Below, one piece after another: positions 9,266 through 39,037 of a stretch of DNA of 45,579 nt. This DNA comes from Candidatus Fervidifonticultor secundus. GTDB lineage: Bacteria; Sysuimicrobiota; Sysuimicrobiia; Sysuimicrobiales; Humicultoraceae. The translations under genes and the position numbers were made by a program. The stretch's first letter is position 1, and the number at the start of each line of letters is the position of its first letter. The notes beneath the pieces were generated by a model. That model was not told where the DNA came from, searched no databases, and saw nothing but the letters and a program-made list of their open reading frames with translations. The stretch covers positions 1-45,579 of the forward strand of contig JAVKIP010000018.1 in the NCBI GenBank assembly GCA_031459385.1, written 5' to 3'.

Positions 9266-9291
9266 GTCTGGCCGGCGCGGACTCCGGGCAT
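9266..9291 (+). promoter_or_regulatory. Putative SigB/F-type promoter (copy 1) upstream of the HD-GYP gene
   Basis: GTCT(9266-9269)-N16-GGGCAT(9286-9291). The same motif recurs upstream of six other units. Confidence 0.65.
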
Positions 9292-9341
9292 AACCCCAGT
9301 ACGCCGGCCGCCCGGGGGTGTGCCGGCGCGCCGGCGTACCG

Positions 9342-10958
9342 ATGCGCGACCTGCTGCCCCGTGGCCGCTTCGAGTGGTGGGCTCTCTATCTTCGAGGGCT
9401 CACCGCATTCTTCGGGGTGTCGGTGCTGCTGGTCGGTACGCCCGCCCACCAGCCGGTGCCGCTGGCCGCTGTTCCGCTGGTGCTCCTCCTGGTGCCCGCA
9501 GGCTTTCTGAGCGTTGTCGAGGCCGCGCGTTGCGGCAGCTACCAGGCTGCGAGTTACGTGGGGACGTTCCTGGAGCTGCTGATCGTCACGTTCCTGGTGT
9601 ACGAAACCGGGGGCCCGGCGAGCTTCTTCTACTTCTTCTACGTGCCCGTGCTCATGTGGGGCACGGCCGGACGCGGCCTGCTCACCGGCGTTGTCGGAGG
9701 GTGGATGGCGGCCCTGGGGTTCGCCGTCGCAGCCAGCCTGCAGGAGACGCCGCCTCCCGACGCGCTGCCGCGGGCAGCGCTCCTGGCGTTGATCGGGCTG
9801 CTGATCGGTCTGCTCGAGCAGCGGCGCGCCGACGCCATGGCAGCGGCCCTGCGCGGCGCGGAGGAGCTGGCGCGGCGCACGCGTGTGGGCGCCGAGGTCC
9901 AGGCAGCCATCCAGGAGATCGCGGGCGCGTCGCTGGCGGACCGTGCCCGACGCCTCCTCGACCGGGTCGTACGCCTGTCCGGCGCCGAGGTCGGGCTCGT
10001 CGCGGTGGTCGACCTGGAAGGGCGTGCCGTGGTGGAAGCTGCGGTCGACGCGCAGGGGGGCTGGCGCCGCGGCGAGTCCCTGCCGCGCACCGCCGTGCTG
10101 GACGACGTGCTGCAGTCGGGCCTTCCCCATACCGCAGTGGACGTCTCGGCGGATGCCCGGTGGGCCAGCGTGTTCGGCCGCGGCCGGGCGGGATCGGCCG
10201 TGCTGTTCCCGCTGCGGGCCGGCGGGCAGACCTTCGGCGCCGCGTTCCTGGCACGCCGCGACGTGCGCCTGTTCAGCGAGCCCGAGGTGGAGGCTACCGA
10301 GGCGCTGCTCGCTGCGACCGCGCCAGCCCTGCGGGACGCCCAGATGCAGGTGCAGGCGCACGAGTTCATGATGAGCACGGTGAACGCGCTGGCGGCGGCG
10401 CTGGAGGCCAAGGATCCGTACACGCGGGGGCATTCCCAGCGCGTGGCGAGCAACGCCGTTGCCCTGGCGGAGGAGATCGGCCTGCCGCTCGACGAGGTCG
10501 AGCGCATCCGCTGGGCCAGCCTGCTGCACGACATCGGCAAGATCGGCACGCCCGAGCACATCCTGCGCAAACGCGGTCCGCTGACCGACGAGGAACGGGC
10601 CATTATGAACCTCCACGCTGAGCGCGGCGCACGCATTCTCAAAGAGTTCGCACCGTTCCGTGGGCTGGTGGACTACGTGCGCTACCACCAGGAGGCGTAC
10701 GACGGCAGCGGGTACCCGGAGGGGCTGGCGGGCGAGGCGATCCCCCTGGGCGCCCGGATCATCCGCATCGCCGATACCTTCGACGCCCTCATCTCTGACC
10801 GCCCCTACCGGCGCGGCCGTGCCATCGACGAGGCGACGGCGGAGCTGCGGGCAATGGCCGGGAGCGTTCTGGATCCATTCCTGGTCGACGTCTTCCTCCG
10901 CGTCCTCCAGGTGAAGCCGCCGTTCGAGGTGCAGCTGCGCCTCTGGCGCGAGGGCTAG
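9342..10958 (+). CDS. Membrane-anchored GAF + HD-GYP c-di-GMP phosphodiesterase
   Basis: Several N-terminal TM helices, GAF-like middle, then KDPYTRGHS, LLHDIGK, HQEAYDGSGYP and RPYR motifs intact. Confidence 0.9.
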   Translation: MRDLLPRGRFEWWALYLRGLTAFFGVSVLLVGTPAHQPVPLAAVPLVLLLVPAGFLSVVEAARCGSYQAASYVGTFLELLIVTFLVYETGGPASFFYFFYVPVLMWGTAGRGLLTGVVGGWMAALGFAVAASLQETPPPDALPRAALLALIGLLIGLLEQRRADAMAAALRGAEELARRTRVGAEVQAAIQEIAGASLADRARRLLDRVVRLSGAEVGLVAVVDLEGRAVVEAAVDAQGGWRRGESLPRTAVLDDVLQSGLPHTAVDVSADARWASVFGRGRAGSAVLFPLRAGGQTFGAAFLARRDVRLFSEPEVEATEALLAATAPALRDAQMQVQAHEFMMSTVNALAAALEAKDPYTRGHSQRVASNAVALAEEIGLPLDEVERIRWASLLHDIGKIGTPEHILRKRGPLTDEERAIMNLHAERGARILKEFAPFRGLVDYVRYHQEAYDGSGYPEGLAGEAIPLGARIIRIADTFDALISDRPYRRGRAIDEATAELRAMAGSVLDPFLVDVFLRVLQVKPPFEVQLRLWREG

Positions 10959-11938
10959 AGGGAGAGGTTTTCGGCCGATGCTGCCGCCACCGTGGCGTTC
11001 CGGCCGCTGCGGGCCAGCGCCAGGGCTTCCTCCAGGCGCTGCAGCAAGCCCTGGTCGTCCTCCGCATCCTGAGGGAACGCGGCCAGCCCGACGCTCACGG
11101 TCTGCGTCATCGGCAGCGGTTCCTCCGGCAGGGTGAACGGGTGCTGCTCCACCGCGCCCCGGATGCGCTCCGCGACGATGAGTCCGCCCTCCAGCGGGGT
11201 CTCCGGAAGAATCAGCCCGAAGCGGCCGGGGCCCAGCGCGGCCCGGATGTCTACCTGGCGCGTGATGCGGCTCAGCACGTCGGCGAGCTGGGCGGTCATC
11301 GCCCGCAGGCCCTCGTCGCCCCAGGCGTCGCGGATCTCCTCGTCCTGGTCCAGCGCCACCAGCGCGGCGGTGAAGCCGCGGGTGAACCGCCGGTAGCGCC
11401 GGACCTCCCGGCGCAGCATGATGTGGAAGTAGTTGGCGTTGAACAGCCCTGTGGCCGGGTCGATGATCACCTGCCGTCGGAGCCGCTCCCGCAGCTCCTC
11501 CAGCTGGCGCCTGGCGGCCACCGTCCGGCGGTCGCGTTGCCGCTCGTGGTGCCGGATGCCTTCCAGCACCGCGGTGACGCTGGCATGGTCGAGGCGGCGC
11601 AGGAACTCCTCGCCGGCGCTCGGGTGGTCGGGCGCCTCGGCCAGGAACCCGAGCAGCACGGGCTTGACCTCCAGCACGACGCGCACGACTTCGTGGAGCG
11701 GGACCCCGAAGGCGAAGGCCTCCTGGCTGAGACGGGCGGCGAACTCGGCGAACGGCTCGGGGCGATCGGCGACCAGAGCCTCGCAGACGGCGTTCATCCC
11801 GGTCAGGGTCCAGCGTCCGACGCGCTCGGCATCCTGCCACCACACGCTGAGCCCGGAGGTGCTGGCGATGAGATCCGCCCAGCGGGCCGCCAGCAAGCGA
11901 CGGTGCACGCGAACGCGCTCGAGCGCGGCAGCCTCCAT
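10955..11938 (-). CDS. Degenerate GGDEF-domain protein with an N-terminal helical (RsbRD_N-like) domain
   Basis: DPATGLFN, ILPET, AERIR and TVSVGLAAFP give the GGDEF fold, but the signature reads GPGRF. GGAGAGG RBS before the ATG at 11938. Confidence 0.85.
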   Translation of the reverse strand: MEAAALERVRVHRRLLAARWADLIASTSGLSVWWQDAERVGRWTLTGMNAVCEALVADRPEPFAEFAARLSQEAFAFGVPLHEVVRVVLEVKPVLLGFLAEAPDHPSAGEEFLRRLDHASVTAVLEGIRHHERQRDRRTVAARRQLEELRERLRRQVIIDPATGLFNANYFHIMLRREVRRYRRFTRGFTAALVALDQDEEIRDAWGDEGLRAMTAQLADVLSRITRQVDIRAALGPGRFGLILPETPLEGGLIVAERIRGAVEQHPFTLPEEPLPMTQTVSVGLAAFPQDAEDDQGLLQRLEEALALARSGRNATVAAASAENLSL

Positions 11939-12037
11939 ATGCGCCTCTCCCGGCTTACTACGCGCTGCGCTCGTACGACTCCTGTCCTGGGCAGGAAGCG
12001 TCCACGGCGCGGCGAACTCTGACGGCCGCCTGGAGCC

Positions 12038-12397
12038 ATGGGCACGAAGCTGCGCGGGATCCTGCAGGAGCTGGTCGGCGATGACACGCGGGCGGCCGCG
12101 GTCCTCGGCATAGATGGCGGCGTCATCGAGGCCGTCACCAAGGGCGGTGTCGCCGACCTCGCCCGCGTGAGCACCGATCTGGCGGCCCTGGTGAAGGTGG
12201 GGGCGTACTGCATCCGAAAGCTGGACGGCGGGGAACTGGACTACATCACGCTCACGACCGACAGCCTGTCGGTGCTGGTGGTGGCCATGGGCCAGCAGCA
12301 CTACCTCGCCACCGTCCTGGACGCCGGCGGCAACGTCGCGCGTGCGCGCCTGCAGATCCGGCGGCGCAAGGCGGAGATCACGGAGCAGCTCACGTGA
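12038..12397 (+). CDS. Roadblock/LC7 (MglB-like) protein
   Basis: 119 aa, LRGILQEL...[13 protein letters not shown]...[12 protein letters not shown] pattern. Confidence 0.8.
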
Positions 12398-13371
12398 GGC
12401 CGGCCCGCTGGCGATGCGTGCTCGGGGCCGGGCTGGTCCTCCTCGTGGGCCTCGTGCCGGTCGGGCCCGCGCCGGCCGCGGCCGGCACGCGACCCGCAGC
12501 CGGCGCGGCGGCGCCGACGTCGTCCGCCGCCGCGCTGCAGGAAGGCGCGCGCCTGCTCCACGAGGGCCGGCTGCAGGACGCCGAGGCTGCGGTGACGCGC
12601 GCGCTACGCGCGCGTCCGGCGGACCCGCGCGCCTGGCTGTGGCTCGGGGCGATCCGCTATCACCAAGGCGACGTCCAGTGGGCGGCGCAGGCGTTCGACT
12701 ACGTGTCGCGGCGGCAGCCGCACAACGCCCGGGCGCTCCTGTGGCTCGGCCACGCGCTGGTGCGGGCGGGCCGCGCCTCCGAGGCCCAGGAGGCGTTCCG
12801 CCGGGTGCTGCTGCTGCCTGCCGATCCACCGGCGCACGAGTTGGCCCGCCAGGCCCTGCGCGCGATGCGACCGCTGCCGCAGCAGGCAGCGCGGGGGCCC
12901 GAGGCCGCGGCCTGGGTCACCGACGTCACGGCCTACCAGGGGTTCGCGCGGCACTACAATCCCCGGCTGGGCCTCCAGGACGCCCGCCGCATCGGCGAGG
13001 CGCTGCTGGGTTACAGCCGGCTGTTCAACGTCGACCCGCGCCTGGTCGTCGCGCTCGTCGTGGTCGAGTCGGGGTTTCAAGTCCGCGTGCGGTCGCGTGC
13101 CGGGGCCATTGGCCTGGGGCAGCTGATGCCGGAGACCGCGCAGGCGCTCGGCGTCGATCCGGAAGACCCCGTGCAGAACCTCTACGGCACGATCCGGTAC
13201 CTGCGCGGGACCCTCGACCGGTTCGGGTGGGACAACCTGCACCTGGCCCTGGCGGCGTACAACGCGGGCCGTGGTGCCGTCGAGCGCCACCGGGGCATTC
13301 CCCCCTACGACGAGACGCGCTGGTACGTCGTGAACGTCACGACCCTCTACCGCCGGCTGCTGGCCCTGTGA
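12394..13371 (+). CDS. Exported TPR + SLT lytic transglycosylase
   Basis: Signal peptide, about three TPRs (AWLWLG, ALLWLG), SLT motifs [22 protein letters not shown] and ETRWYV. Confidence 0.9.
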
Positions 13372-13439
13372 GGCCGGCACCGGGCGAGGCGACCGCGCGC
13401 CACGAGCTTCACCGGCGTCCTCCGGGAAGGTCTGCGGAG

Positions 13440-13465
13440 GTCTAGGCGAAGCCGCGGCGGGGCAC
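13440..13465 (+). promoter_or_regulatory. Putative SigB/F-type promoter (copy 2) upstream of riboswitch 1
   Basis: GTCT(13440-13443)-N16-GGGCAC(13460-13465). Confidence 0.65.
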
Positions 13466-13517
13466 AGAAGAACTGGTGGACATCGCGTGCCGGCGATGTG
13501 CGGGCCGGTACGTGCAC

Positions 13518-13608
13518 CCTCCGAACGGGCTAACCCATCGCGAGGTGGGGGCGCAAAGCCGACGGGGGCGCGCGGGCTGCCGTGCGGCCGGCCGGGTTGC
13601 CGAAGAGG
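13518..13608 (+). ncRNA. c-di-GMP-I (GEMM-I) riboswitch aptamer 1
   Basis: CGAACGGGCTAA-CCCATC-GCGA-GGTGGG-GGCGCAAAGCC...GCCGGGTTGCCGAA matches the GEMM-I consensus (GNRA-capped P2, GCAAAG junction, 3' GGGYUGCCGA). It lies in a 5' leader. Confidence 0.88.
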
Positions 13609-13616
13609 AGCCAGGT

Positions 13617-13649
13617 GCGGGCCCTTCGGCCGGTGGCCGGAGGGCCCGC
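13617..13649 (+). promoter_or_regulatory. Strong hairpin, likely the expression platform of riboswitch 1
   Basis: 15-bp stem GCGGGCCCTTCGGCC/GGCCGGAGGGCCCGC with one G-U pair and no U-tract. The 5' arm CTTCGGC is complementary to aptamer 3' GCCGAAG (13599-13605). Confidence 0.55.
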
Positions 13650-13724
13650 GCGTTGCGAGCGCAGCGGCGCCACCGGTGCCGCGCGGTCTCCACAGGCGTT
13701 ACGCCCCGGGCAGGAAGGAAGGTC

Positions 13725-14489
13725 GTGAATCGTCGCACCGCCCTGGAGAGCGCGCGCGCCGGCCCGGCCCTCATCGCCGCCGTGCCCGCCGACGCCATCG
13801 ATCTCGATGCCCTCATCGCCCACCTGACCGCTCGCGGGTTCGAAGGCGGCATCTCGATCGCCGATCCGGAGACGGACGCCGTGCTGTGGATCCACGATGG
13901 CGCCCCGCAGGAGGCATGGTTCCTCGAGGCCACGGGGACTGAAGCCGTATTGCCCGCCGCCGCAGGGCGTGATCTGCTGCGGCAGGTAGCAGCGCGCGGC
14001 GGCATGCTCGCGGTGCTGACCGGCGTGCCGGCGATGCCCGCGTGGCCTGCGGGCGAAGGCGAACTGACGCCGGCGGATGCGACGGCGGCGGGCACGGCGC
14101 CAGCGACGCTGCCGCTGGAGCCCGCGGGCGCAGAGCCCACGGCCAGCGCGGGCGAGTTCGTGGCGAGCACGGCAGTGACCATGGAGCCGCCGGCGCACCC
14201 GTGGCCGCAGATCCTGAGCCTGTTTGTCCAGCGTCTCGCGCGGCTGCGGGGCCGCAAGCTCGCCAGCCGGTTTCTCGCGTCGCTCAATCGGGCGCTCGCG
14301 CCGCACGGCGGCCGCGTGGAGGACGGGCAGGTCGTGGCGCCCCCGCTCCCGGAGGCCACGTGGCGCCGGATCGTGGAGACCGCGTGCGCGTCCATCGTGG
14401 CGGTCGTGGGGCGGGGCTTCGTCGACGGCAACATCGCGGCAGCGGAGCAGGAACTGCGCCAGGCGAGCCGCGCAGGGGAGGGCCGGTGA
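13725..14489 (+). CDS. Hypothetical protein with a PATAN/DUF4388-like N-terminal domain
   Basis: AGGAAGG RBS and GTG start. IDLDALIAHLTARGFEGGISI...AVLWIHDG pattern, Ala/Pro linker, helical C-terminus. Confidence 0.6.
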   Translation: MNRRTALESARAGPALIAAVPADAIDLDALIAHLTARGFEGGISIADPETDAVLWIHDGAPQEAWFLEATGTEAVLPAAAGRDLLRQVAARGGMLAVLTGVPAMPAWPAGEGELTPADATAAGTAPATLPLEPAGAEPTASAGEFVASTAVTMEPPAHPWPQILSLFVQRLARLRGRKLASRFLASLNRALAPHGGRVEDGQVVAPPLPEATWRRIVETACASIVAVVGRGFVDGNIAAAEQELRQASRAGEGR

Positions 14490-15298
14490 CCGCCCGCTCG
14501 GGCATCACCCACTACGCCTGGCCCGGGGGGCTGGCGGTGGTGCTGGAGACCCCGACCGCAGGCATCGGTGCGGTCTTCGGGGCGGCGGGCTGGCAGCTGG
14601 CGCCGCACGACGCGGTGACCGCGGGGCTCCCGTCCGGCGCCGCACGCGCGCATCTCCCCCTGCCCGAGGATGTCGTCGCCCAGTGCATGGACCTGGAGTT
14701 CGTGGGCGGCGCGCTGCACACCGACTTCGTGCTGCTCGACCGCCTCCTCCGGCGCCTGCAGGCCGACGGCACTAGCGCCGTGCTCTTCGTGCTCGGGACG
14801 CATCCCGCGGCCTTCGTGGTCAGCGAGGGGACGCTGACGGCCTTTGATCCCACCGCGCCGGAAGCATCGGAGGAGGCTGTGATCACTCGCGCAGCAGGAT
14901 GGATCGTGCAGCTGGCGGGGCGGATGCGCGCGCCGGCCACGCCGCCGGAACCGGCGATGCCGGTCGCCGCGCCCGCGCCGGCGGGGGCGACGGCGGTCGC
15001 CTCGCCCGACGACGAGCGCTTCGGCCGGTTTGCGGCGAGCGCCCGGTTCCTGTGCGCGCCCGGCGCCGATGCCGCGCTCGCGCCGGAACTGCGCGCTGCG
15101 ATTCAGACCGCGACCGGCGTCGACCCCGGGGCGGTGGTGCGCTACCTCGACGGTGGGCACACGCTCGCCGAGGTCGCCGCCGCCAGCGGCCTCCGGGGCC
15201 CGCAGGTCGCGGCTGTGCTCGAGGTGCTCGTGGCGCGCCGGCTCGCGTTCCGGTACGTCAGCCGGTCCCGCCCGCAGACCGGCTCGCGGCTGCGGTAA
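14486..15298 (+). CDS. Hypothetical protein with a PATAN/DUF4388-like domain and a C-terminal winged helix
   Basis: GTGA overlap. LHTDFVLLDRLLRRLQADG...FVVSEG, and C-terminal LDGGHTLAEVAAASGL...VLEVLVARRLA. Confidence 0.6.
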   Translation: MTARSGITHYAWPGGLAVVLETPTAGIGAVFGAAGWQLAPHDAVTAGLPSGAARAHLPLPEDVVAQCMDLEFVGGALHTDFVLLDRLLRRLQADGTSAVLFVLGTHPAAFVVSEGTLTAFDPTAPEASEEAVITRAAGWIVQLAGRMRAPATPPEPAMPVAAPAPAGATAVASPDDERFGRFAASARFLCAPGADAALAPELRAAIQTATGVDPGAVVRYLDGGHTLAEVAAASGLRGPQVAAVLEVLVARRLAFRYVSRSRPQTGSRLR

Positions 15299-15325
15299 CG
15301 GACACGGCGGTGGCCGCGCGCCGAT

Positions 15326-15351
15326 GTCTACCCGAGGGGAGTTCTGGGCAA
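15326..15351 (+). promoter_or_regulatory. Putative SigB/F-type promoter (copy 3) upstream of riboswitch 2 and the sigma gene (autoregulatory)
   Basis: GTCT(15326-15329)-N16-GGGCAA(15346-15351). Confidence 0.65.
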
Positions 15352-15434
15352 AGTTCTTTGCGGAGAGTCTGCACCAATGTTCTGGGCGGTCTGTTCTGGC
15401 GCGCGCTGACCGCCGGCGACAACTGCATACCGCT

Positions 15435-15513
15435 CCCCGAACAGGGCAAACCCATCGCGAGGTGGGGGCGCAAAGCTGCGGGACCTGCGTGGTCGGCCGG
15501 GCTGCCGAAGGGA
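15435..15513 (+). ncRNA. c-di-GMP-I (GEMM-I) riboswitch aptamer 2
   Basis: CGAACAGGGCAAA-CCCATC-GCGA-GGTGGG-GGCGCAAAGCT...GCCGGGCTGCCGAA. ACAGGGCAAACC is the same as in the Vc2 aptamer. Confidence 0.92.
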
Positions 15514-15521
15514 TGCACCGT

Positions 15522-15561
15522 GGATCCTCGTGGGCAGTCCCAGGAGGGTCCGTTGTTTTTT
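15522..15561 (+). terminator. Intrinsic terminator, the expression platform of riboswitch 2
   Basis: GGATCCTC-GTGGG-CAGT-CCCA-G-GAGGGTCC followed by GTTGTTTTTT, between the aptamer and the sigma RBS. Confidence 0.8.
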
Positions 15562-15611
15562 CGGGGACGGGCGCGTCGCATGCGGACGAAAGGTCACGGG
15601 GAGGCCGCACG

Positions 15612-16442
15612 ATGCCTGGGCGCAGTGGAGAGAGTGCCGTACCGGAGGTTGGAGCACACCGCATGGGCCGCGGGGCGGGCGGCGGGGAGGCCCGTGAGGA
15701 CGAGGAAGCGCTCATGCGACAGTACGCGGAGACCCGCGACCCGACAATCCGGGAGCGGGTGGTGGTGGCCTGCACGCCGCTGGTCCGGCGCATCGCCTCG
15801 GAGTTCGTCTTCTCTGGGGTCCCGACCGAAGACCTGGTGCAGGTCGGGTACATCGGGCTCCTGAACGCCATCGCCGCGTTCGACCCCACCCGCGGGGCCA
15901 AGTTCACCACGTACGCCAGCTACCTGGTCCGCGGCGAGATCCGCCACTACCTGCGCGATCAGCGCGACACGATCCGCAAGCCCCGGTGGCTGCAGAAGAT
16001 CAACACGCGCATCGAGGACGCTATCGGGCGGTACATCAGCGAGGAGGGACGGTTTCCCGGCCTCGAGGAGCTAGCGACCGAGCTGAACATCGAGGAGGAA
16101 GGCCTGCTCGAAGTCCTCCGGACGCGGGAAGCCCTGCGGACCATCGCGCTCGAGACCGATGAAGAGGGCAGCGACCTGCGCGTCGACCGGGAGCGCATCC
16201 GCCACCGCTCGCACGTCAGCTTCCAGCTGCCCATCGAGGACCGTGTGCTGCTGCTGGAGGCCATGGAGTCGCTGAACAGTCTGCAGAAAAAGGTGCTCTA
16301 TTACCTGTTCTTCACCGATCTGACCCAGACCGAGGCCGCCAGGCGCATCGGTATCTCGCAAAAGCACGTCTCGCGCGTCCTGGCCTCGGCCCTGGCCAAA
16401 CTGCGAGGCGTGATGGGCGTGGTGTCATCGGAAGTGATCTAG
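15612..16442 (+). CDS. RNA polymerase sigma factor, SigB/SigF/SigG family
   Basis: EDLVQVGYIGLLNAIAAFDPTRG.KFTTYA...GEIRHYLRD...IR.PR, region 4 TQTEAARRIGISQKHVSR, GGGGAGG RBS. Confidence 0.93.
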   Translation: MPGRSGESAVPEVGAHRMGRGAGGGEAREDEEALMRQYAETRDPTIRERVVVACTPLVRRIASEFVFSGVPTEDLVQVGYIGLLNAIAAFDPTRGAKFTTYASYLVRGEIRHYLRDQRDTIRKPRWLQKINTRIEDAIGRYISEEGRFPGLEELATELNIEEEGLLEVLRTREALRTIALETDEEGSDLRVDRERIRHRSHVSFQLPIEDRVLLLEAMESLNSLQKKVLYYLFFTDLTQTEAARRIGISQKHVSRVLASALAKLRGVMGVVSSEVI

Positions 16443-16512: not shown

Positions 16513-16869
16513 ATGTCGCAGCTCAAGGATGTGCTGGCGGATCTGGCCAAGGTGGACGGTGTCCTGGCGGCACTGGTCGTCAGCCGTGACGGGTTCGTCG
16601 TGGAGGGCGTGACCAGTGAGGAGGCCGTGGACCTCGAGGCCGTGGGCGCCATCGTGGCCAGCAACATCGCCGCCGCCGACTCCATGGGCCGGGAGATGGT
16701 CCGCGGCACCATCCGCAACCTGCTGTTGGAGTTCGACGAGGGCCCCGTCGCCATCGGCCCGGCCGGTCCCGATGCGATGCTGGTGGTCGTGGGGAACAAA
16801 CAGGCGAACCTGGGACGCATCCGCCTCGAGATGCGGCGCAACAGTCAGCTGGCGGCCGCGCTGGTATAG
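16513..16869 (+). CDS. Roadblock/LC7 (MglB-like) protein
   Basis: LKDVLADLAKVDGVLAALVVSRDGFVVE...LEFDEG...ANLGRIRLEM, GGAGG RBS. Confidence 0.9.
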   Translation: MSQLKDVLADLAKVDGVLAALVVSRDGFVVEGVTSEEAVDLEAVGAIVASNIAAADSMGREMVRGTIRNLLLEFDEGPVAIGPAGPDAMLVVVGNKQANLGRIRLEMRRNSQLAAALV

Positions 16870-19115: not shown

Positions 19116-19142
19116 ATGCCCAAGTCCAGCGGGCGCGAAGAC
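19116..19142 (-). promoter_or_regulatory. Putative SigB/F-type promoter (copy 4) for the TPR-PilB gene
   Basis: Minus strand GTCT(19142-19139)-N17-GGGCAT(19121-19116), ending only 11 nt before the ATG. Confidence 0.55.
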
Positions 19143-19157
19143 GCCTCTGCCACGCGA

Positions 19158-19183
19158 GACTAGCGCTGTGGTTTTGTGGGCAT
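19158..19183 (+). promoter_or_regulatory. Putative SigB/F-type promoter (copy 5) for the dnaB-like-merR-pilB-pilT-pilC operon
   Basis: GACT(19158-19161)-N16-GGGCAT(19178-19183), back-to-back with copy 4. Confidence 0.65.
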
Positions 19184-25749: not shown

Positions 25750-25775
25750 GTCTACGTTGTCCGGCAGTTGGGTAG
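25750..25775 (+). promoter_or_regulatory. Putative SigB/F-type promoter (copy 6) upstream of the pilin gene
   Basis: GTCT(25750-25753)-N16-GGGTAG(25770-25775). Confidence 0.62.
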
Positions 25776-25886
25776 TGAACAGGATGGTGCGACTTGCGGG
25801 CGCGGGGGAGGTGGTGAGGGCCGGGACCGGTGAGCGTACTGCGAACTGCTGGGCTGGTCACTTTCGAACGAAGGAGGTCGGGTATC

Positions 25887-26297
25887 TTGCTTAACTTCTT
25901 CCTCACGCACAAGCGGCGCGCCGGCCAGGGAGGGTTCACCCTCATCGAGCTGGTCGTCGTGCTGGCCATCCTGGGCATCCTGCTGGCGCTGGCGGTGCCC
26001 CGGTACCTGGGCGCCCGGAAGCGGGCGTACAAGGCCGAGGCGCAGAACCTGCTGCAGGAATTGAAGACGCTGTCATGGGCGTACTACCAGGAGTTCAATG
26101 TGTTTAGGACGGATCTGTCGGCGCTCGGGTTCGTGATGCCCAATGGGGCGAGCTGGGATCCTCCGACCGGCGCGGGCGATAATACACAGACCGTGACGTG
26201 GACCCTCACGGGTTCCTCAGGCACCCCTGTTGCGGGGAACACGTGCTCCCTGATCCTGGCGGGCACCGGGAGCTCCTCGCAGGGCTGCAACTTCTAG
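25887..26297 (+). CDS. Type IV pilin (probable major pilin)
   Basis: AAGGAGGT RBS and TTG start, class III signal peptide G|FTLIELVVVLAILGILLALAVP, C-terminal Cys pair. Confidence 0.92.
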   Translation: MLNFFLTHKRRAGQGGFTLIELVVVLAILGILLALAVPRYLGARKRAYKAEAQNLLQELKTLSWAYYQEFNVFRTDLSALGFVMPNGASWDPPTGAGDNTQTVTWTLTGSSGTPVAGNTCSLILAGTGSSSQGCNF

Positions 26298-26415
26298 CGG
26301 CGGGGTCTGCGCACACAGCGTGGGGAGCGGTTCGTGAGTGGCCGCTCCCCGGCTGTGCTGTTCTGTGCGGGCCTATCGAAACCAACCACAAGGCGCGGCC
26401 TCGCTGACCTTCCAG

Positions 26416-28005
26416 ATGAACGGCGGGGAGTCGCAGACGGCGCACTTTCTGGGACGTCGCGAATCCCCTCCAGATACCGACGTGCAGGGCGGCCGACTCG
26501 ATGGAGGCGCGAGCCGGTTTGGTCTTTTGCTGATACTGGTTCTGGCCTTGGCGTTGCGCTTGTGGGATATCTGGCGGACGAGCATCTGGTTCGACGAGGC
26601 GTACAGTCTGTTTCTAGCCAAGCAGGGACTGGCGGAAATCCTTCGGCGGCTGCGGGTGGAGGACATGCACCCCCCACTGTACTACGTTATCCTTGGCCTC
26701 TGGATCAGGCTCTTCGGAACCTCGGAGCTCGCGATTCGGCTGCCCTCTGCGGTGATGGGCGTACTGCTCGTCGGACTTACCTACGCACTGGCTCGTTGCG
26801 TGGCTGACGAGCGTATTGCCCTGACAGGCGCCGCGCTAGTGGCGTTGTCGCCCTTTCAACTGATGGCCTCGCGTGACGCGCGCATGTACCCGTTTCTGGC
26901 GGTATTTGCACTGGCGGCCTCATACGCCCTCTGGCGGGCCGTCGAAACACAGCAAGGGCGCTATTGGGCCGCCTATGTGGGCGCAGTGGTCGCGGCGGTG
27001 TACACGCACCATTTTGCGTTTCTCGTGCTCTTGGCCCATGCGGCTTTTGTCCTGGCCTGCGCCCGCCACCGCATGCGGCCATGGCTTGGTGCCGGACTCG
27101 TTGCGGGAACCGCGTACCTGCCGTTTCTGCCTATTCTGTGGACGCAGCTGCACCACCAGCGGTCCTGGCCGATCACCAGACCGGTGTTCGGGTCCTCCGC
27201 GCTGGCGGATCTAACGGGCCTGCTGGCCTTCGGTGGTGAACTGCTCGGGATGGGCACCTACCACACGCGGAGTCGCCTGCCTCTGCTGTGGAAGCTGTCC
27301 TTGGTGCTGCCGTTTCTGATGCTGGTCGTGCTGGGTAGCGCGAGTGTCTCCGGGCAGGCGAGGCTCTTTCTGGCGTCGTATCTGGCGCTCCCTGTTGCCG
27401 TGGCGGGCCTCGTCTCGCTACACATGAACGTCTTCTACGACCGCTATTTCTCTTTTCTCGTACCGCCGTACGCGATCCTGACCGCGGCGGGTTTGTGGGG
27501 GCTGGGCCGTGGTGCCCCGCGCGTGCGACAGGCGGTCCTGGCGGCGGGGGGCGCGGCGCTGGTGTTTGTCTACAGCCTGCCGGCGCTCGGCACCGTTTAC
27601 TACGGGCCGTCACCGTACGACTGGCGTGGCGCGGCGGCCTACGTCGAGAAACGGGTTCGGCCGGACGACTTGATCCTGTACATTCCCGCGTTTGCGCACA
27701 TGCCCTTCGACTACTATTTCTCCGGACCGCAGGTGAGAGCCCAACTCAATCCGCGTGAGCTGCTGGCAAAGGAAGTCAAGCCAAGTGCGGAACTGCTGGT
27801 GAAACAGCGGGAACTCCGTGCGCTGGCTGAGCAGCATCCACGGATGTGGGTTGTGGCGACGCTGCCGCTTGGGAGCGAGGCGCGGCTGCGGTTCTTGGAT
27901 CTGGTCAGACCGTACTTCGTGGAACGGGAGGGCAGAGACTTCCACTGGGTGTACGTGTTCCTCTGGGAGTCGAAGGTGTATCAGCCGCGGGGGAGCCGCC
28001 GGTAG
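26416..28005 (+). CDS. GT-C membrane glycosyltransferase (GT39/PMT/ArnT-like)
   Basis: SIWFDEAYS, HPPLYY, RLPS and ARMYP motifs, many TMs. Start uncertain (26338 is an alternative). Confidence 0.85.
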   Translation: MNGGESQTAHFLGRRESPPDTDVQGGRLDGGASRFGLLLILVLALALRLWDIWRTSIWFDEAYSLFLAKQGLAEILRRLRVEDMHPPLYYVILGLWIRLFGTSELAIRLPSAVMGVLLVGLTYALARCVADERIALTGAALVALSPFQLMASRDARMYPFLAVFALAASYALWRAVETQQGRYWAAYVGAVVAAVYTHHFAFLVLLAHAAFVLACARHRMRPWLGAGLVAGTAYLPFLPILWTQLHHQRSWPITRPVFGSSALADLTGLLAFGGELLGMGTYHTRSRLPLLWKLSLVLPFLMLVVLGSASVSGQARLFLASYLALPVAVAGLVSLHMNVFYDRYFSFLVPPYAILTAAGLWGLGRGAPRVRQAVLAAGGAALVFVYSLPALGTVYYGPSPYDWRGAAAYVEKRVRPDDLILYIPAFAHMPFDYYFSGPQVRAQLNPRELLAKEVKPSAELLVKQRELRALAEQHPRMWVVATLPLGSEARLRFLDLVRPYFVEREGRDFHWVYVFLWESKVYQPRGSRR

Positions 28006-28026
28006 GGTGCCGGGTGGTTGCGAGCG

Positions 28027-29781
28027 ATGAGCCTAAGCGCATCTACTTCTGGCAGTGGCCCCAAGCGTGCTGTCGGCCTGGCGCTGTGGGCGTGTGTCGC
28101 GCTGTATGTGGCTACGGCTGCGGTGGTGGGTCGACACCACGAGTTCTGGTCGCCTGATTCGGCGGTACGGTTCGTACAGGCGGAGAGCTTGCGGCGTGCT
28201 GGGTATCGGGACGTCGCCGTGCCTTACCCCGCAGCGGGCCTGGATCCAGACGGCCGCTTTTTCCCGGCGGGCCCATGGTTTCACTTCATGCGGGACGGCC
28301 GGCACTACTTCTCATATCCGCCGTATTTTCCGGCACTGGCGGGCCTGCTCTACGGCGGGCTGGGCTACCCGGGACTGCTCGTCATCCCGCTCGCAGCCGG
28401 CGTGGCGACCCTGCTGATCACCGCATGGTTCCTGGGCCTCGTCGCGCCCAGGCTTGCCGCAGTGGGGGTCGTCGCGGTGGGGCTCGGCACCCCATTGCTC
28501 GTCTACAGTGTGGTCTTCTGGGATCACAGCCTGGTGGCAGCGCTCGGCTCGGGGGCGCTGGCCGCGACGGCCTTGGCGCTCCGCGACGATGCCCGGTCCG
28601 CCGGCCGGCCGCTGGCTTTCGCGGGAGCGCTGCTCGGCGCGGGACTGTGGTTCCGAAACGAGATGTACGTGCTGCTTGTCGCGATCGGAGCGGGTTGGCT
28701 GTTGTGGGGCGGCGCAGCGCGCGTAAGGGGTGCGGCCGTGCTGGGAACGGCTGCGGGGCTCGTCGCGTTACCCGCACTCGTGCTGAACGTATATCTGTTT
28801 GGCGGCCCACTGGGATGGAAGGGTAGGGACCTGACGACCGGACGCCTGCAGGGCATGGCGGAAGCCGCTGGTGGTGTGCAGACCATCGGATGGCTGGCGG
28901 ACAAACTCGGCAATGCCTACTATCAACTCGTCTCGCCGGACTTTTACGCGTACAATCCGCGGGCTGTTGCCGTCGGCCTGGCGATTGCGACGGCCCTGCT
29001 GGCGGGAGTCGTATTGCTCAACCTGGGCCGGCGTCGGCGGTCAGCACGCTGGCTGGTGGCGGGCGGCGCGACCGTGGCGGCTCTGGTGATACTGACCGTG
29101 TCGGGTCGTCCCGCCGTGTCGGGACTCCTGATTTCGGCTCCGGTGGTCCTCTTGAGCCTGCTGGGTGGGCAACGCGCGCGTTGGGAACGGTACCTGTGGA
29201 CGGTCGTGGTAGTTTTTGCTGGCGCCGTAGTGGTGACCGGCACGCACGGAGGGTTGCAATGGGGGCCACGCTATCTCCTGCCGATTGTTCCCGCGCTGGT
29301 GTGGCTGGCCGCAGCAGCCACCGAGCGGACCAGACAGGCTGTGCCAGGACTCTGGCCGCCGCTGGGCGTTGCAGTGTGTCTGGTACTGGGAGCCAGCGTG
29401 CTCGTGCAGGTTGCGGGGGTCGAGCATGTGGATGCGTCGCTGTCGCGCAACGTACGGGTGAACGCAGCCCTGCGGGCAGCACCGGCCGAGATCGTCGTAA
29501 CGGGACTGGAGTGGCTGGTACTCGGTGCTGGCCCCGTGTACTTTGAGAAACGTTTGCTGTTCGTTCAACATCCAGAACTGTTTCGTCTCCTCGTTCGTCG
29601 CTTCGTAGACCGACGTGTGGAACAGTGGACATATGTCCCCTGGTCCGGATCGGCGTACGGCGCGGGAACGGTGCAAGCCTGGACGGCGACGGCCGCCTGG
29701 CGCTTCTCCGTGATTGATGACCGAGAAGTGAACGGCATACGCTTAGTGACATATCACGGAACGTCAGGGGCTCCACAGTGA
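28027..29781 (+). CDS. Multi-pass membrane protein, putative GT-C glycosyltransferase
   Basis: FWSPD loop after TM1, YSVVFWDH, FRNE and QWGPRYLLP motifs, more than 10 TMs. Confidence 0.7.
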   Translation: MSLSASTSGSGPKRAVGLALWACVALYVATAAVVGRHHEFWSPDSAVRFVQAESLRRAGYRDVAVPYPAAGLDPDGRFFPAGPWFHFMRDGRHYFSYPPYFPALAGLLYGGLGYPGLLVIPLAAGVATLLITAWFLGLVAPRLAAVGVVAVGLGTPLLVYSVVFWDHSLVAALGSGALAATALALRDDARSAGRPLAFAGALLGAGLWFRNEMYVLLVAIGAGWLLWGGAARVRGAAVLGTAAGLVALPALVLNVYLFGGPLGWKGRDLTTGRLQGMAEAAGGVQTIGWLADKLGNAYYQLVSPDFYAYNPRAVAVGLAIATALLAGVVLLNLGRRRRSARWLVAGGATVAALVILTVSGRPAVSGLLISAPVVLLSLLGGQRARWERYLWTVVVVFAGAVVVTGTHGGLQWGPRYLLPIVPALVWLAAAATERTRQAVPGLWPPLGVAVCLVLGASVLVQVAGVEHVDASLSRNVRVNAALRAAPAEIVVTGLEWLVLGAGPVYFEKRLLFVQHPELFRLLVRRFVDRRVEQWTYVPWSGSAYGAGTVQAWTATAAWRFSVIDDREVNGIRLVTYHGTSGAPQ

Positions 29782-31169
29782 CCGTCATTGCGGCCATCCT
29801 GTATGCACTGAGAGACAGGCTGCCGATGACTGCGGGCGGGCGGGGCCAGGCCGTCGGTGAGCCCCACAACTGGCAGAGGGACGGAGTGCAGGTAGTGAGT
29901 TACTGGGTGGGATCTCTGGTACCAATGGCGATGGCGCTGATTGGCGTGGCCGTATTCACGCGTCTCGTTGATGTGGAGGACTACGGTCGGTTCATGCTTG
30001 TGACCGCAGCCACTGGTATCGTGATTACGGTGTTAGCGGGGTGGGGCGAGTACGCTGTCCTCCGTATGGTTCCTGAGGTCGATCGGGCTGCCGATCGCGC
30101 GGCGGTCATCTGCGCCGTCCTGCAAGCGGTGCTGCGCCCGGCCATGATCGCTGCGGGAGGCGTGGCGGTACTGGGATTGGTCGCGATTTGGGCCGCCTGG
30201 CTCCCCGGCGTATTTCGGGCGTACCTGCTCCCTGCGGTCTGTCTGCTCGTGGTCCGTCCCGCCTTCCAGATTCTCCGCGCAGTGTACCAGGCAAGCGGTG
30301 ACGCTCCGAGGTACGCAGCCTATGAAGTGATTCAGGCGGTGCTGGCAGTGGCACTGGGAGCCCTGCTGGTGTGGTTGCTGAGGCTGGGCATGGCCGGCCG
30401 ATTGTGGGCGGAAGTCACGGTGCTCGGCGCGCTGAGCTTTGCGGCTGCCCGGTCGTCGTGGAGCGGCGGAAACACGGCGGCGCCGCGGGGCGAGGGCAGG
30501 GAAGAAGAGGAAACGGTCCGCCGTGCGCTCCGCGTGGGTCTGCCGGTTGTGGCGTGGTTTGCGAGCCTCAGTCTCCTGACCGGCCTGGAGCGAGGTATCC
30601 TGCGAGTGCTCGCCGGAGATGGCGCGGTGGGCTCCTACGGAGCGATCTACGGCTTGGTCGAGCGGACCAGCACGGTGACCTTCGGCCCGCTGCTCATGGT
30701 GTCGTTTCCCCGTATTGTGAAGGCGTTTGTTAGTCACGGGAGTGCCGCAGCGGGTAAGGTATTGGGTCATGCTGTGGCTGTGTTTGGCGCTGTGGCTTTC
30801 GTGTACGTGGCGTTGGGGGTGGCGTTTGGGGGGATGGCTGTTCGCATCATCGTGCCCGACAGCTACCTGGGTGGTCTGGGAGTTATTCCCTGGCTGCTAG
30901 TGGCTTTCGTAATCTGGCACTTTGCGATGTACGCTCACAAGGGTTTGGAACTCGGAGAAAGGATGTGGACGATGTTGGGTGCGATAGCGGTGGCCGTTTG
31001 TGTGTCCGTGCTAGGGTGCGTGCTCCTGGTGCCCCGGTTCGGGATCGTGGGGGTTGGTATCGCCAGGGTGCTTGCGTCGCTGGCGTATCTGGCGGTGGTC
31101 TGGCGCCCGTCACAGGCGATCGCCCCCTGGGTCTTCAAGGCCGTGCCGTCGGGCGGGCGGTTGGGCTAG
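29778..31169 (+). CDS. Wzx-like oligosaccharide flippase
   Basis: FTRL...DYG, VGSYGA.Y and LVPRFGIVG motifs, about 12 TMs. Start may lie further downstream. Confidence 0.82.
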   Translation: MTVIAAILYALRDRLPMTAGGRGQAVGEPHNWQRDGVQVVSYWVGSLVPMAMALIGVAVFTRLVDVEDYGRFMLVTAATGIVITVLAGWGEYAVLRMVPEVDRAADRAAVICAVLQAVLRPAMIAAGGVAVLGLVAIWAAWLPGVFRAYLLPAVCLLVVRPAFQILRAVYQASGDAPRYAAYEVIQAVLAVALGALLVWLLRLGMAGRLWAEVTVLGALSFAAARSSWSGGNTAAPRGEGREEEETVRRALRVGLPVVAWFASLSLLTGLERGILRVLAGDGAVGSYGAIYGLVERTSTVTFGPLLMVSFPRIVKAFVSHGSAAAGKVLGHAVAVFGAVAFVYVALGVAFGGMAVRIIVPDSYLGGLGVIPWLLVAFVIWHFAMYAHKGLELGERMWTMLGAIAVAVCVSVLGCVLLVPRFGIVGVGIARVLASLAYLAVVWRPSQAIAPWVFKAVPSGGRLG

Positions 31170-32350
31170 TGCGCGTGGGACTGGATCTCTGGCACGCCAC
31201 TCTGGACAGCGGGGGGATCGGCCGCTATGCGGTGGAGCTGACCAAGGCGCTCGTGGCGCTTCAGAGCGAGAGTCCGGGTCCGAGCTACGTGTTGTTTCCA
31301 GGCAGGGGACAGCCGGCCTGGATGGAGGCGGTGCTAGCGGAGCACGCGAATACCTGTCTGGGTATTCGTCGCTGGAGGTGGCCACGAGCAGGGATTCCCG
31401 CCAGAGTAGCGCGGGCGGCTCTGCTCGTTGCGCGGCAGTCCCGTGCGCTCGGCGTCGACGTGCTGCACTGCATGGATTTTCTTGATACCCCCTTGGGGGC
31501 GGTTGGGAAGACGCGAATCGTCGCGACGGTTCACGATATTTCGCCTATTCTGTATCCGGAAACGTTCACGAAGCGGCATGCCCTGTTTTTCGGCGCATTG
31601 GCTCGTGCGCTGGCACGGAGAGCGGACCGCTTGATTACTGTGTCCCGCGCCGCCGCAGCTGAGATTATTGAGTGGGATGGGACGCTCAGCGAAAAGCTCA
31701 GCGTGGTTTACCTGGGTGTGAGCGATGTGTTTCGTCCGGCCGAGCCGCGTATGGTGAATGACGTGCGAGCGCGGTATCAGCTTCCCGCGGAGTACCTTGC
31801 GTGTCTCGCTACTGTGCAGCCGCGAAAGAATCTCGAGCGGCTGATCGACGCTTATGCGTTACTTATCGGACGCGATGCGCTGGTGCCACCACTGGTGGTT
31901 GCTGGACGTCTCGGCTGGCTGTACGGCCCAATCTTGCGGGCCATCGCTGAGGGACGGCTGCAGGCCCACGTGCGACTCCTGGGATTCGTGCCGGACGAGC
32001 ATCTTCCGGCTCTGCTGACCGGGGCCAAGGCGTTTGTCTTTCCGTCCATTCACGAAGGATTCGGCTTGCCGGTCCTCGAGGCGATGGCGTGCGGGACGCC
32101 GGTGGTCACTAGCAATTGCTCGTCCCTGCCCGAGATCGCCGGAGATGCGGCGGTACTCGTGGATCCTCGCGACGTCGAGTCTATTGCTTATGGTATCCAA
32201 AGCATCCTCACCGACGCGGCTCTCGCTGCGGAACTGATGCAGCGTGGGTTCCGGCGAGCGGCAACCTTCACGTGGCCCCGTGCTGCCCAAAGGACACTCG
32301 ATGTCTACCGCATGTCCCTTGGGGAGGCGCCACGTCCAGGACAGGCGTAA
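31169..32350 (+). CDS. Glycosyltransferase family 4
   Basis: GGIGRY, TVHD, PRKNL, FVFPSIHEGFGLPVLEAMACG. GTG start overlaps the flippase stop. Confidence 0.92.
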   Translation: MRVGLDLWHATLDSGGIGRYAVELTKALVALQSESPGPSYVLFPGRGQPAWMEAVLAEHANTCLGIRRWRWPRAGIPARVARAALLVARQSRALGVDVLHCMDFLDTPLGAVGKTRIVATVHDISPILYPETFTKRHALFFGALARALARRADRLITVSRAAAAEIIEWDGTLSEKLSVVYLGVSDVFRPAEPRMVNDVRARYQLPAEYLACLATVQPRKNLERLIDAYALLIGRDALVPPLVVAGRLGWLYGPILRAIAEGRLQAHVRLLGFVPDEHLPALLTGAKAFVFPSIHEGFGLPVLEAMACGTPVVTSNCSSLPEIAGDAAVLVDPRDVESIAYGIQSILTDAALAAELMQRGFRRAATFTWPRAAQRTLDVYRMSLGEAPRPGQA

Positions 32351-32351
32351 C

Positions 32352-33275
32352 ATGCGGGGCTGGATCCAGCAGGGGCGTGTGCGAGACATCCGACAGCGTG
32401 CCGCGCGTTGGTTACGAGCCCTGGGCAAGCGTCTGGGGCCGACCGCGGTCTACTTGGGAGATGGCGCGGTGCTTACCAGATTGGTCTCTGGCGAGGTGAT
32501 GTTGCTCGATGGTCGCGATCGGTCGGTGGCCCCCGTGCTCATCATGGACGGGGTGTGGGAGCCAGACGTCACGCAGGTCGTATTACGATGCGTACGGCCA
32601 GGTATGCGCGTCCTCGATGTTGGCGCGAACTTCGGGTATTTTACGCTCTTGCTGTGCCGGCGAGTAGGGACCGAAGGGAGAGTCTACGCGTTCGAGCCCC
32701 AGGCGCGTGTGCACGCGTTTCTCGAATACAACATCGAATGCAACGCCTACGGGACCGTTGCGCGAGCCTACCGCTTGGCACTTGGGGCAAGTGCGGGAAC
32801 TCAACTGCTCAGGCGGGTCGAGAGCGGCTTGGGGGTACGGGCGGGCAGTGCGTCGGTCAGAGAGGAAGTGGCACGGGAATTGCTGCCGGCCGTGAGCGAG
32901 GCAGTCCTCGCGCAGGAGACCGCGGAGGTGACCCGCCTGGACGACCTTGGCCTTGGCGAGATCGATTTCGCGAAGATCGATGCCGAGGGGGCCGAGTACG
33001 ACGTTTGGAGAGGCGGTCGCAGTACCCTGTCGCAGGCGGCGTGCCTCATCATGGAGTACGGACCGCGGTCGCTCGCGGCAGGCCCCGCCCTTCTGGAGGA
33101 ACTCCGCGACGCGGGGTTTCGCCTGGCGATTATCGAACGTGGGGGCAGGCTCACCGCGGCGTTGCCCCCTGAGATTCACTCCGTGGCGGAGGATCGCGGG
33201 TTCGTGCACGTCTTCGCAGGAAAGCCGCGGTACCTGGCTGATTTGGGTCTCCGTGTTGAGAAAGCCAAGTTGTAG
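32352..33275 (+). CDS. FkbM family methyltransferase
   Basis: VLDVGANFGYF, YAFEP and KIDAEGAE motifs. Confidence 0.92.
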   Translation: MRGWIQQGRVRDIRQRAARWLRALGKRLGPTAVYLGDGAVLTRLVSGEVMLLDGRDRSVAPVLIMDGVWEPDVTQVVLRCVRPGMRVLDVGANFGYFTLLLCRRVGTEGRVYAFEPQARVHAFLEYNIECNAYGTVARAYRLALGASAGTQLLRRVESGLGVRAGSASVREEVARELLPAVSEAVLAQETAEVTRLDDLGLGEIDFAKIDAEGAEYDVWRGGRSTLSQAACLIMEYGPRSLAAGPALLEELRDAGFRLAIIERGGRLTAALPPEIHSVAEDRGFVHVFAGKPRYLADLGLRVEKAKL

Positions 33276-33364
33276 ATGATTGAAACGCCGGCGCTGACGT
33301 GCGTTCCCGGACCGTACCCCTGAGGGTCTGACGGAGCGCTGTGTTTGACATTACCGGTGCATGC

Positions 33365-38884: not shown

Positions 38885-39011
38885 GCGGTGCCCTCCATGT
38901 GTGTCCGATTCCCGCCACGCCCGCGGCACCATGGCCGCCAATCGAGCGCGGCCGGGGCGCGGGACAGTTGTCGCGAGGAACCGGTCGAACGGACTCGTGC
39001 ACGCAGGGGTT

Positions 39012-39037
39012 ATGCCCAACCCTCCGGGGGCTCAGTC
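39012..39037 (-). promoter_or_regulatory. Putative SigB/F-type promoter (copy 7) for pilT2-pilU
   Basis: Minus strand GACT(39037-39034)-N16-GGGCAT(39017-39012). GGGCATAACCCC is identical to copy 1. Confidence 0.65.

Follow-up and report, generated by a model that had tools for sequence, protein, structure and literature searches.

The window analyzed here is the whole of a 45,579-nucleotide stretch of Candidatus Fervidifonticultor secundus (GenBank contig JAVKIP010000018.1), listed as C10 among the 59 contigs of its assembly, which amounts to 3.3 Mb and is 97.6% complete (GCA_031459385.1, referred to as G000). The gene of interest encodes a SigB/F-type (group 3) sigma factor of 276 amino acids and is located at 15612-16442 on the plus strand. 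Its leader carries a class I cyclic di-GMP (c-di-GMP-I) aptamer at 15436-15510 (+), followed by an intrinsic terminator at 15522-15561 (+). Upstream of it, at 9342-10958 (+), there is a gene for a 538-amino-acid protein with a membrane part, a GAF domain, and an HD-GYP domain, and downstream there is a cluster of type IV pilus genes. The window also holds 7 copies of a promoter-like motif, standing before the pilus genes, the sigma gene, the HD-GYP gene, and another c-di-GMP aptamer. Gene order was taken from domain scans with Pfam and NCBIfam together with our own gene call based on G+C at third codon positions (GC3). The overall explanation that we prefer is that the window is the control center of a type IV pilus regulon, in which c-di-GMP would gate the sigma mRNA, the sigma would drive the pilus genes, and the HD-GYP protein would close a loop by removing c-di-GMP. 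It is a coherent and plausible reading of the sequence, to which we assign a probability of roughly 35%. The anatomy that it starts from is real and well conserved; the circuit reading is testable and unproven.

The sigma-leader aptamer scores 65.1 bits against the Rfam model RF03167 (gathering score 59, E = 3 × 10−13), and at 15435-15509 it scores 58.9 bits against RF01051 of clan CL00126 (gathering score 35). The other aptamer, the first in the window, is at 13518-13604 (+) and matches RF01051 with 41.2 bits against that gathering score of 35; downstream of it is a 17-pair hairpin at about 13615-13651 without a U run. The genome has 8 c-di-GMP aptamers in total. According to the Rfam alignment, the conserved ligand-pocket stretches GGCAAAC, GCAAAG, and GCCGAA are canonical in the sigma-leader aptamer, and their columns are invariant across 22 orthologous leaders. 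We take these stretches to be the Vc2 positions G20, A47, and C92, and the A column of GCAAAG is presumably the intercalating adenine of Vc2. The c-di-GMP-I-GGC variant described by RF03167 was rejected as the identity despite its best score, because both aptamers have A where the model consensus GCGAAG has G. Since both carry the A in GCAAAG, they are read as ordinary c-di-GMP-I aptamers. A literature search found no definition of the "GGC" variant. The sigma-leader aptamer very probably senses c-di-GMP.

Sigma orthologs with 67-86% identity are present in 21 relatives within the family, and the aptamer precedes the sigma gene in every one of them. It also does so in 5 of 8 further loci from the same order, where the sigmas are 46-57% identical. 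A separate nhmmer scan of the named assemblies places the aptamer ahead of 15 of 15 orthologs and of 4 loci labeled ANGP1, and the nhmmer profile finds no aptamer ahead of the sigma paralogs or of sigma relatives in other phyla. Two unpublished genomes, G010 and G019, enter the counts given here through loci L024, L039, L062, L177, and L182. When they are left out, the aptamer precedes the sigma gene in 19 of 19 relatives, and the motif treated below is found before the sigma leader in 10 of 20 and before the HD-GYP gene in 13 of 13.

The terminator has a hairpin at 15522-15551, with 30 bases, 12 pairs, and a folding energy of −22.9 kcal/mol (z = −4.49, matched by none of 200 shuffles), and right after it a U run at 15552-15561 (GTTGTTTTTT, elsewhere given as GUUGUUUUUU). 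It thus has the G+C-rich hairpin and adjoining U run of an intrinsic terminator. A first-pass annotation of the window, made without database searches, had placed a GEMM-I aptamer plus a terminator in the sigma leader, which the Rfam scores, the hairpin z-score, and the U run bear out. A consensus promoter and terminator scan missed this terminator because its stem has one interior G-G mismatch; the 2 terminator-like sites that the scan did report are others. All 22 orthologous leaders have a hairpin with a T-rich tail.

The leader also allows an alternative pairing. The aptamer 3′ strand plus linker (from 15499, GGGCUGCCGAAGGGAU) shows complementarity to the terminator 5′ arm plus loop, up to 15540, and the duplex of the aptamer 3′ strand with the terminator 5′ arm has an energy of −27.8 kcal/mol. 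Taken as a hairpin, this predicted antiterminator at 15499-15540 (+), which is drawn from duplex energy and folding, comes to −23.5 kcal/mol (z = −2.03) and nearly equals the terminator. RNA cut at 15542 adopts the antiterminator fold, and RNA reaching past 15550 adopts the terminator fold. The cut RNA pairs the aptamer 3′ strand or linker with the terminator 5′ arm or loop in 16 of the 22 orthologous leaders. Among those leaders the terminators come in 2 designs, with upper stems of the GGGGCAG type and of the CGGUGGCA type, both complementary to the invariant aptamer strand. This comparison of expression platforms rests on per-sequence folds; RNAalifold applied to the 22 terminator windows gives 7 pairs and −2.16 kcal/mol from a MAFFT alignment that had the stems in different registers. 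Because the terminator is wholly downstream of the aptamer, a bound aptamer has no means of blocking it and acts solely by keeping back the antiterminator strand. A downstream terminator combined with an antiterminator made in part from the aptamer 3′ strand is the anatomy of an OFF switch, and we are fairly confident that the sigma-leader riboswitch would act as a transcriptional OFF switch.

The sigma protein matches Sigma70_r2 with 61.6 bits and the region 4 family with 43.1 bits, both over the cut-off, and region 3 with 22.1 bits versus a cut-off of 25.3. Its best NCBIfam family is SigB/F/G, TIGR02980, at 176.9 bits; since this is under the curated cut-off of 234.35, we call it SigB/F-type and not a member of the curated subfamily. 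The second-best NCBIfam match is to the SigF subfamily model NF005644, and the best solved relatives are SigF- and SigB-type chains, with which the sigma aligns over its full length. No partner-switching anti-sigma kinase or STAS antagonist is found among the neighbors of the sigma gene. In the genome, there is no STAS_2 match and there are only weak or kinase-embedded matches to HATPase_c_2; PF01740 was not searched.

The promoter-like motif has the form G(T/A)CT(A/G)-N15-GGG(C/T)A and was derived from sites upstream of the riboswitches of the genome. With its GT-rich −35 element separated by 15 bases from a GGG(C/T)A −10 element, it resembles SigB/F-type promoters in shape. The pattern GTCTN-N15-GGG[CT]A is found 58 times in the genome, 20 of these being in the 10% that is intergenic, and when the spacing is changed or the pattern reversed, intergenic matches number 3-6. 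A widened version of the pattern gives 21 intergenic matches versus 2-12 for controls. As the intergenic enrichment is confined to the N15 spacing, we take it as evidence that the motif is real. A first, loose pattern, GTCTNG-N14-18-GCANA, was dropped, with 3 sites found versus 1.43 expected and 20 of 100 shuffles as good. The consensus promoter scan reported no sigma-70-type promoter.

Three of the copies in the window are those at 9266-9293 (+) before the HD-GYP gene (GTCTGG, 15 bases, GGGCATAA), at 13440-13467 (+) before the first aptamer (GTCTAG, 15 bases, GGGCACAG), and at 15326-15353 (+) before the sigma leader (GTCTAC, 15 bases, GGGCAAAG). The copies at 9266 and 15326 agree with the earlier claim that the HD-GYP and sigma genes both carry the promoter motif. 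The remaining copies stand before pilus genes. Two form a divergent pair, at 19117-19142 (−) before a TPR-MshEN PilB-like gene and at 19158-19182 (+) before the DnaB-like/pilB-pilT-pilC operon, one is at 25750-25777 (+) before the pilin gene (25830-26297, +), and one, a GACT variant, is at 39013-39037 (−) before a gene for a PilT-like ATPase (37805-38941, −). Across the genome, 6 of the 8 aptamers have a motif copy 41-110 bases upstream, and outside the window the motif precedes a second pilin-like gene, GspH-like minor pilins, a LysM-NlpC/P60 hydrolase, an AMIN-amidase, 2 PAS histidine kinases, and a REC-GGDEF gene. Pilin homologs have the motif ahead of them in 5 of 5 cases examined. On another contig (G000:C59:39038-43979), a copy of the form GTCTGA-N15-GGGCATAC heads a co-directional gene run that ends in a second HD-GYP gene, whose HHE motif reads SHE.

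In 12 of the sigma leaders, there is a sigma-A-like promoter, TTGCnn-N17-TAnnnT, between the SigB/F-type motif and the aptamer. At 15366-15397 of the window, this promoter is degenerate (TCTGCA...TGTTCT), and so the sigma gene of this genome may depend more on the autoregulatory promoter.

The HD-GYP gene is an open, full-length frame matching HD_5 with 139.4 bits (cut-off 27.2) and GAF_2 with 38.2 bits. Five hydrophobic stretches fall in residues 13-160 at the N-terminus, and the HD dyad (LLHDIGK) and the GYP motif (DGSGYP) are present. The best solved relative is 5z7c, an HD-GYP enzyme specific for 3′3′-cyclic GMP-AMP (3′3′-cGAMP), with E = 9 × 10−41, followed by 4mcw, which we take to be the c-di-GMP-active PmGH, with E = 2.3 × 10−35. 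The genome has 5 HD_5 (HD-GYP) matches and 7 GGDEF matches, and no EAL domain is found in this 97.6% complete assembly, which leaves the HD-GYPs as the only recognizable c-di-GMP hydrolases. Full-length orthologs of the window protein, with 44-78% identity, are present in 13 relatives, and at least 10 relatives carry the HD-GYP gene on the same contig as the sigma gene, at a distance of 5-9 kb. There is also a partial copy in G024 and an end fragment in G019. The motif, with GGGCATA as its downstream element, is 36-135 bases before the start codon in 14 of 14 HD-GYP loci (in L059 in the GACT form, read by eye).

Two further observations touch this gene. In its predicted mRNA 5′ leader, at 9300-9338, a 9-base inverted repeat (TACGCCGGC ... 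GCCGGCGTA) can be seen by eye, ending 3 bases before the ATG. At its other end the HD-GYP gene meets a convergent gene (10955-11938, −) that encodes a GGDEF domain. The active site of this domain is degenerate, GPGRF replacing GGDEF, and the RxxD five residues upstream is kept, which is the pattern of an inactive c-di-GMP receptor. The convergent gene adjoins the HD-GYP gene in 9 of the 13 relatives' loci.

Put together, the proposed circuit would run as follows. With c-di-GMP bound, the folded aptamer would keep its own 3′ strand, the hairpin and U run would form, and transcription would stop. Without the ligand, the aptamer 3′ strand would pair with the terminator 5′ arm, and the sigma gene would be read through. 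The sigma would then start transcription at promoters matching G(T/A)CT(A/G)-N15-GGGCA(T)A, its targets being the pilin gene, the pilB/pilT-type operons, minor pilins, cell-wall hydrolases, its own leader, 5 other riboswitch leaders, and the HD-GYP gene. If the HD-GYP protein hydrolyzes c-di-GMP, sigma and c-di-GMP would inhibit each other, which makes a double-negative and hence positive loop, and in this genus direct autoregulation of the sigma would be added to it. Apart from that loop, c-di-GMP would act twice on one pathway, at the sigma leader and at the leaders of the 5 other sigma-type units. With a single riboswitch class used throughout, this would amount to feed-forward control; it is the firmer of the two proposals and is absent from the first-pass annotation.

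Several observations weigh against this circuit. Concerning the riboswitch, 6 of the 22 cut leaders fold otherwise, and the antiterminator duplex energies have z-scores from −1.5 to +1.7 versus shuffled arms, a test that the G+C-rich RNA makes uninformative. A pair-count test is likewise weak for single sequences, with 1 to 100 of 100 shuffles reaching the observed count. In addition, the terminator coexists with aptamer hairpins in the full-length minimum-energy fold, which would make the choice between the 2 outcomes a kinetic one. With an alternative pairing that does no better than shuffles in single sequences, one could suppose an ON switch, or a riboswitch uncoupled from the terminator, with c-di-GMP inducing the sigma and the HD-GYP protein serving as plain negative feedback. 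That is very unlikely given that the terminator lies fully 3′ of the aptamer and that its sole competitor uses the aptamer 3′ strand. Furthermore, in the L046 leader, from another family, GGAGGG lies in the hairpin 3′ arm shortly ahead of the AUG, so that this hairpin would be repressive in any case. The OFF switch that the first-pass annotation took as its condition is supported by the anatomy, with an antiterminator made from the 3′ strand and the same geometry in 16 of 22 leaders, but it draws no support from the energies versus shuffles. Another difficulty is the identity of the sigma that acts at the motif. Three SigB/F-type sigmas are encoded in the genome, the gated one and those at C8:66449-67201 and C58:85216-86031, with 47-53% identity. 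The region 4.2 helix for −35 recognition is identical in all 3, region 2.4 differs in 1 of them, and GTCTA-N15-GGGAAC precedes the start of the C8 gene by about 50 bases (G000:C8:66400-66450, L017). That site hints at cross- or autoregulation among the paralogs. The identical helices and the similar motif ahead of the C8 copy make the assignment of the motif ambiguous in this genome, and if it were read by the C8 or C58 paralog, or by all 3 sigmas, the HD-GYP gene would not be specific to the gated sigma and the loop would be open. We consider this unlikely. In the 97% complete genome G005, the riboswitch-gated ortholog is the only strong SigB/F/G match, the next match being a 388-residue principal sigma, and GACTGA-N15-GGGCATA is nevertheless kept before the HD-GYP gene; in the window, the gated sigma is itself part of the pilus locus, which has the 7 motif copies. 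On these 2 grounds the gated sigma is the best candidate reader, and we lean toward it as the one that reads the motif. The motif is absent from 11 of the 22 sigma leaders, so that the autoregulation claimed in the first pass would apply to the 11 closest genomes, including that of the window, which carry it, but not to the other half. The claim that the sigma induces the HD-GYP gene is favored by the motif in 14 of 14 loci, by the synteny, and by G005, but it is weakened by the paralogs with their identical helix and by 7 of 22 genomes (G004, G013, G014, G016, G017, G020, and G022) in which the window query finds no full-length HD-GYP ortholog. In addition, a HAD gene of the same orientation lies 102 bases ahead of the HD-GYP gene, and no terminator is found in the gap, which makes sigma-independent read-through possible.

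The closing of the loop depends further on what the HD-GYP protein does and on what else the regulon contains. The HHE motif reads HQE in the window protein and in all 13 orthologs (14 of 14), which means that one metal-binding histidine is gone; among the other 4 HD-GYPs of the genome, it is HHE in 3 and SHE in 1. The gene had been called intact, which is right for the open frame of 538 amino acids and for the HD and GYP motifs but not for this one. With Gln for the second His and a 3′3′-cGAMP-specific enzyme as the best relative, the protein might be a nucleotide sensor or act on 3′3′-cGAMP or pGpG, and the riboswitch ligand would stay. We find this rather unlikely, since 4mcw scores almost as well as 5z7c and the other 5 binuclear-type metal-ligand positions, which we presume to be correctly assigned from the PmGH structure, are kept in the alignment with solved HD-GYPs. 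The conserved Gln itself argues for function, though not necessarily for hydrolysis. On balance, we favor a c-di-GMP phosphodiesterase. As to the rest of the regulon, a motif copy at C5:79064 stands before an intact REC-GGDEF gene (GGEEF, with RxxD kept), another copy at C5:77619 is followed by an aptamer and then by a PAS histidine kinase beside the REC-GGDEF gene, and the motif is kept before REC-GGDEF homologs in 8 of the 11 loci with readable upstream sequence. This means that the regulon also holds a signal-dependent way to raise c-di-GMP and that the feedback is not purely positive, as the first-pass annotation had supposed it to be. The whole could then be a conditional or negative-feedback device, of a pulse or homeostatic type, and not a bistable switch. 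In it, low c-di-GMP would permit sigma synthesis, the sigma would induce the PAS kinase and the REC-GGDEF protein, and the latter, after activation of the kinase, would raise c-di-GMP and shut the regulon; the HD-GYP protein would do no more than adjust the threshold in response to its membrane part and GAF domain. The motif copies before the REC-GGDEF and kinase genes speak for such a device. In several relatives, REC-GGDEF and HD-GYP matches co-occur in one frame, which suggests REC-GGDEF-HD-GYP fusions. The cyclase needs phosphorylation, however, which makes the net effect uncertain, and the HD-GYP arm is syntenic with the sigma and more tightly conserved (14 of 14), so we hold this alternative to be a minority possibility. 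The frames in question, in L176, L177 (G024:C60 and G010:C60), L178-L180, and L184, are 627-677 residues long, and in L176 and in L177, which comes from an unpublished genome, a c-di-GMP aptamer-like sequence is directly upstream. At the other extreme, mutual inhibition, with self-induction of the sigma in this genus, combined with a coherent feed-forward AND gate, in which c-di-GMP shuts off the sigma and independently most of its target operons through their riboswitches, could give all-or-none piliation, with true bistability and separate piliated and non-piliated cells. We regard this outcome as quite unlikely. What the sequence gives is wiring, with candidate positive and negative arms, and any bistability is something that we infer from it. 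The gated sigma with its pilus regulon and HD-GYP loop remains the explanation that we prefer overall.

The rest of the window fits around these genes as follows. Ahead of the HD-GYP gene are alaS, a DUF1292 gene, mltG, and the HAD-type gene, in that order. Behind the convergent GGDEF gene is a small Roadblock/LC7-like gene (12038-12397, +), a weak match at 18.3 bits and under the cut-off, which is kept in 13 of 13 relatives' HD-GYP loci, and then a gene for a lytic transglycosylase with TPR and SLT domains (12394-13371, +), as recognized by the domain scan. The first aptamer is followed by 2 overlapping open reading frames (13725-14489 and 14486-15298, both +) with no family match in Pfam or NCBIfam. 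The nearest Atlas matches of the second one are PatA_N/DUF4388 (PATAN) clusters with a score of 0.91, which is a lead only; this frame is kept upstream of the sigma gene in 20 of 21 loci. Directly 3′ of the sigma gene there is a Roadblock/LC7 (MglB-like) gene (16513-16869, +; 61.2 bits). It is present in 21 of 21 loci with 76-98% identity and is better kept than the sigma.

The type IV pilus cluster begins with the minus-strand TPR-MshEN PilB-like gene and continues with the DnaB-like gene, a DUF6812 gene, pilB, pilT, pilC, and the pilin gene. A stretch of about 7 kb after the pilin gene, at 26300-33700, has a lower G+C (0.64-0.66) and a strong negative AT skew, and almost no open reading frame there passes the GC3 filter. 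The G+C of the window as a whole ranges over 64-75%.

A part of PMC11604079 places Candidatus Fervidifonticultor among the CSP1-3/"Sysuimicrobiota" genomes, and in the main text of that paper pili, c-di-GMP, and riboswitch occur nowhere. For a phylum-level lineage that lacks cultured members amenable to genetics, the circuit would offer an initial way into gene regulation. It would also be compact, fully defined by sequence, and open to reconstruction in vitro. c-di-GMP riboswitches, SigF-type control of pilins, and sigma-driven phosphodiesterases are each known, and it is the joining of them in one conserved locus that would be new. In this locus the messenger would gate the sigma mRNA and, separately, the target mRNAs, and the sigma appears to drive an enzyme that would remove the messenger. 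If the loop is true, the riboswitch would be wired into a decision-making circuit and would not be a simple valve.

Among known systems, the leader resembles Cd1 of Clostridioides difficile, a terminator-bearing class I c-di-GMP riboswitch that reduces expression of an alternative sigma for a surface-appendage regulon. The Cd1 (c-di-GMP-I) riboswitch precedes the flgB operon, which contains sigD. The differences are that in the window no other gene stands between the riboswitch and the sigma gene, that the sigma is SigB/F-type instead of FliA-type, and that the appendages would be type IV pili instead of flagella. The putative targets here also have their own riboswitches, and a phosphodiesterase with a sigma-type promoter would close the loop. 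For the last of these features there is a parallel in Escherichia coli, where FliA drives the phosphodiesterase PdeH (YhjH), keeping c-di-GMP low while the appendage is in use. In that case, c-di-GMP is not known to act on the sigma mRNA, no riboswitch is known, and the enzyme is of the EAL type. In Streptomyces, c-di-GMP controls an alternative sigma, WhiG, through a c-di-GMP-binding anti-sigma protein, RsiG, whereas the control here would be through the mRNA leader.

The HD-GYP protein can be compared with the solved structures of PmGH (4mcw), V-cGAP3 (5z7c), and PA4781 (4r8z), to which its HD_5 domain aligns over about 180-215 residues with E from 9 × 10−41 to 1 × 10−22, with HD and GYP kept. 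It differs from them in its HQE, and the Glu that binds the third metal in PmGH is Tyr here, as it is in V-cGAP3. At its N-terminus there is a five-helix membrane part with a GAF domain and not a REC domain.

For the sigma itself, the relevant comparison is with SigF of Synechocystis sp. PCC 6803, also a group 3 sigma. According to PMC2532724, SigF recognizes the pilA1 promoter and autoregulates, and its core promoter is given as TAGGC at −32 and GGTAA at −12. No riboswitch is described there for SigF, and the −35 element in the window is G(T/A)CT. The likeness is in the GGTA-like −10 element, the pilin promoter, and the autoregulation, and on this analogy we propose that cyanobacterial SigF is the known sigma to which the window sigma would be closest in behavior.

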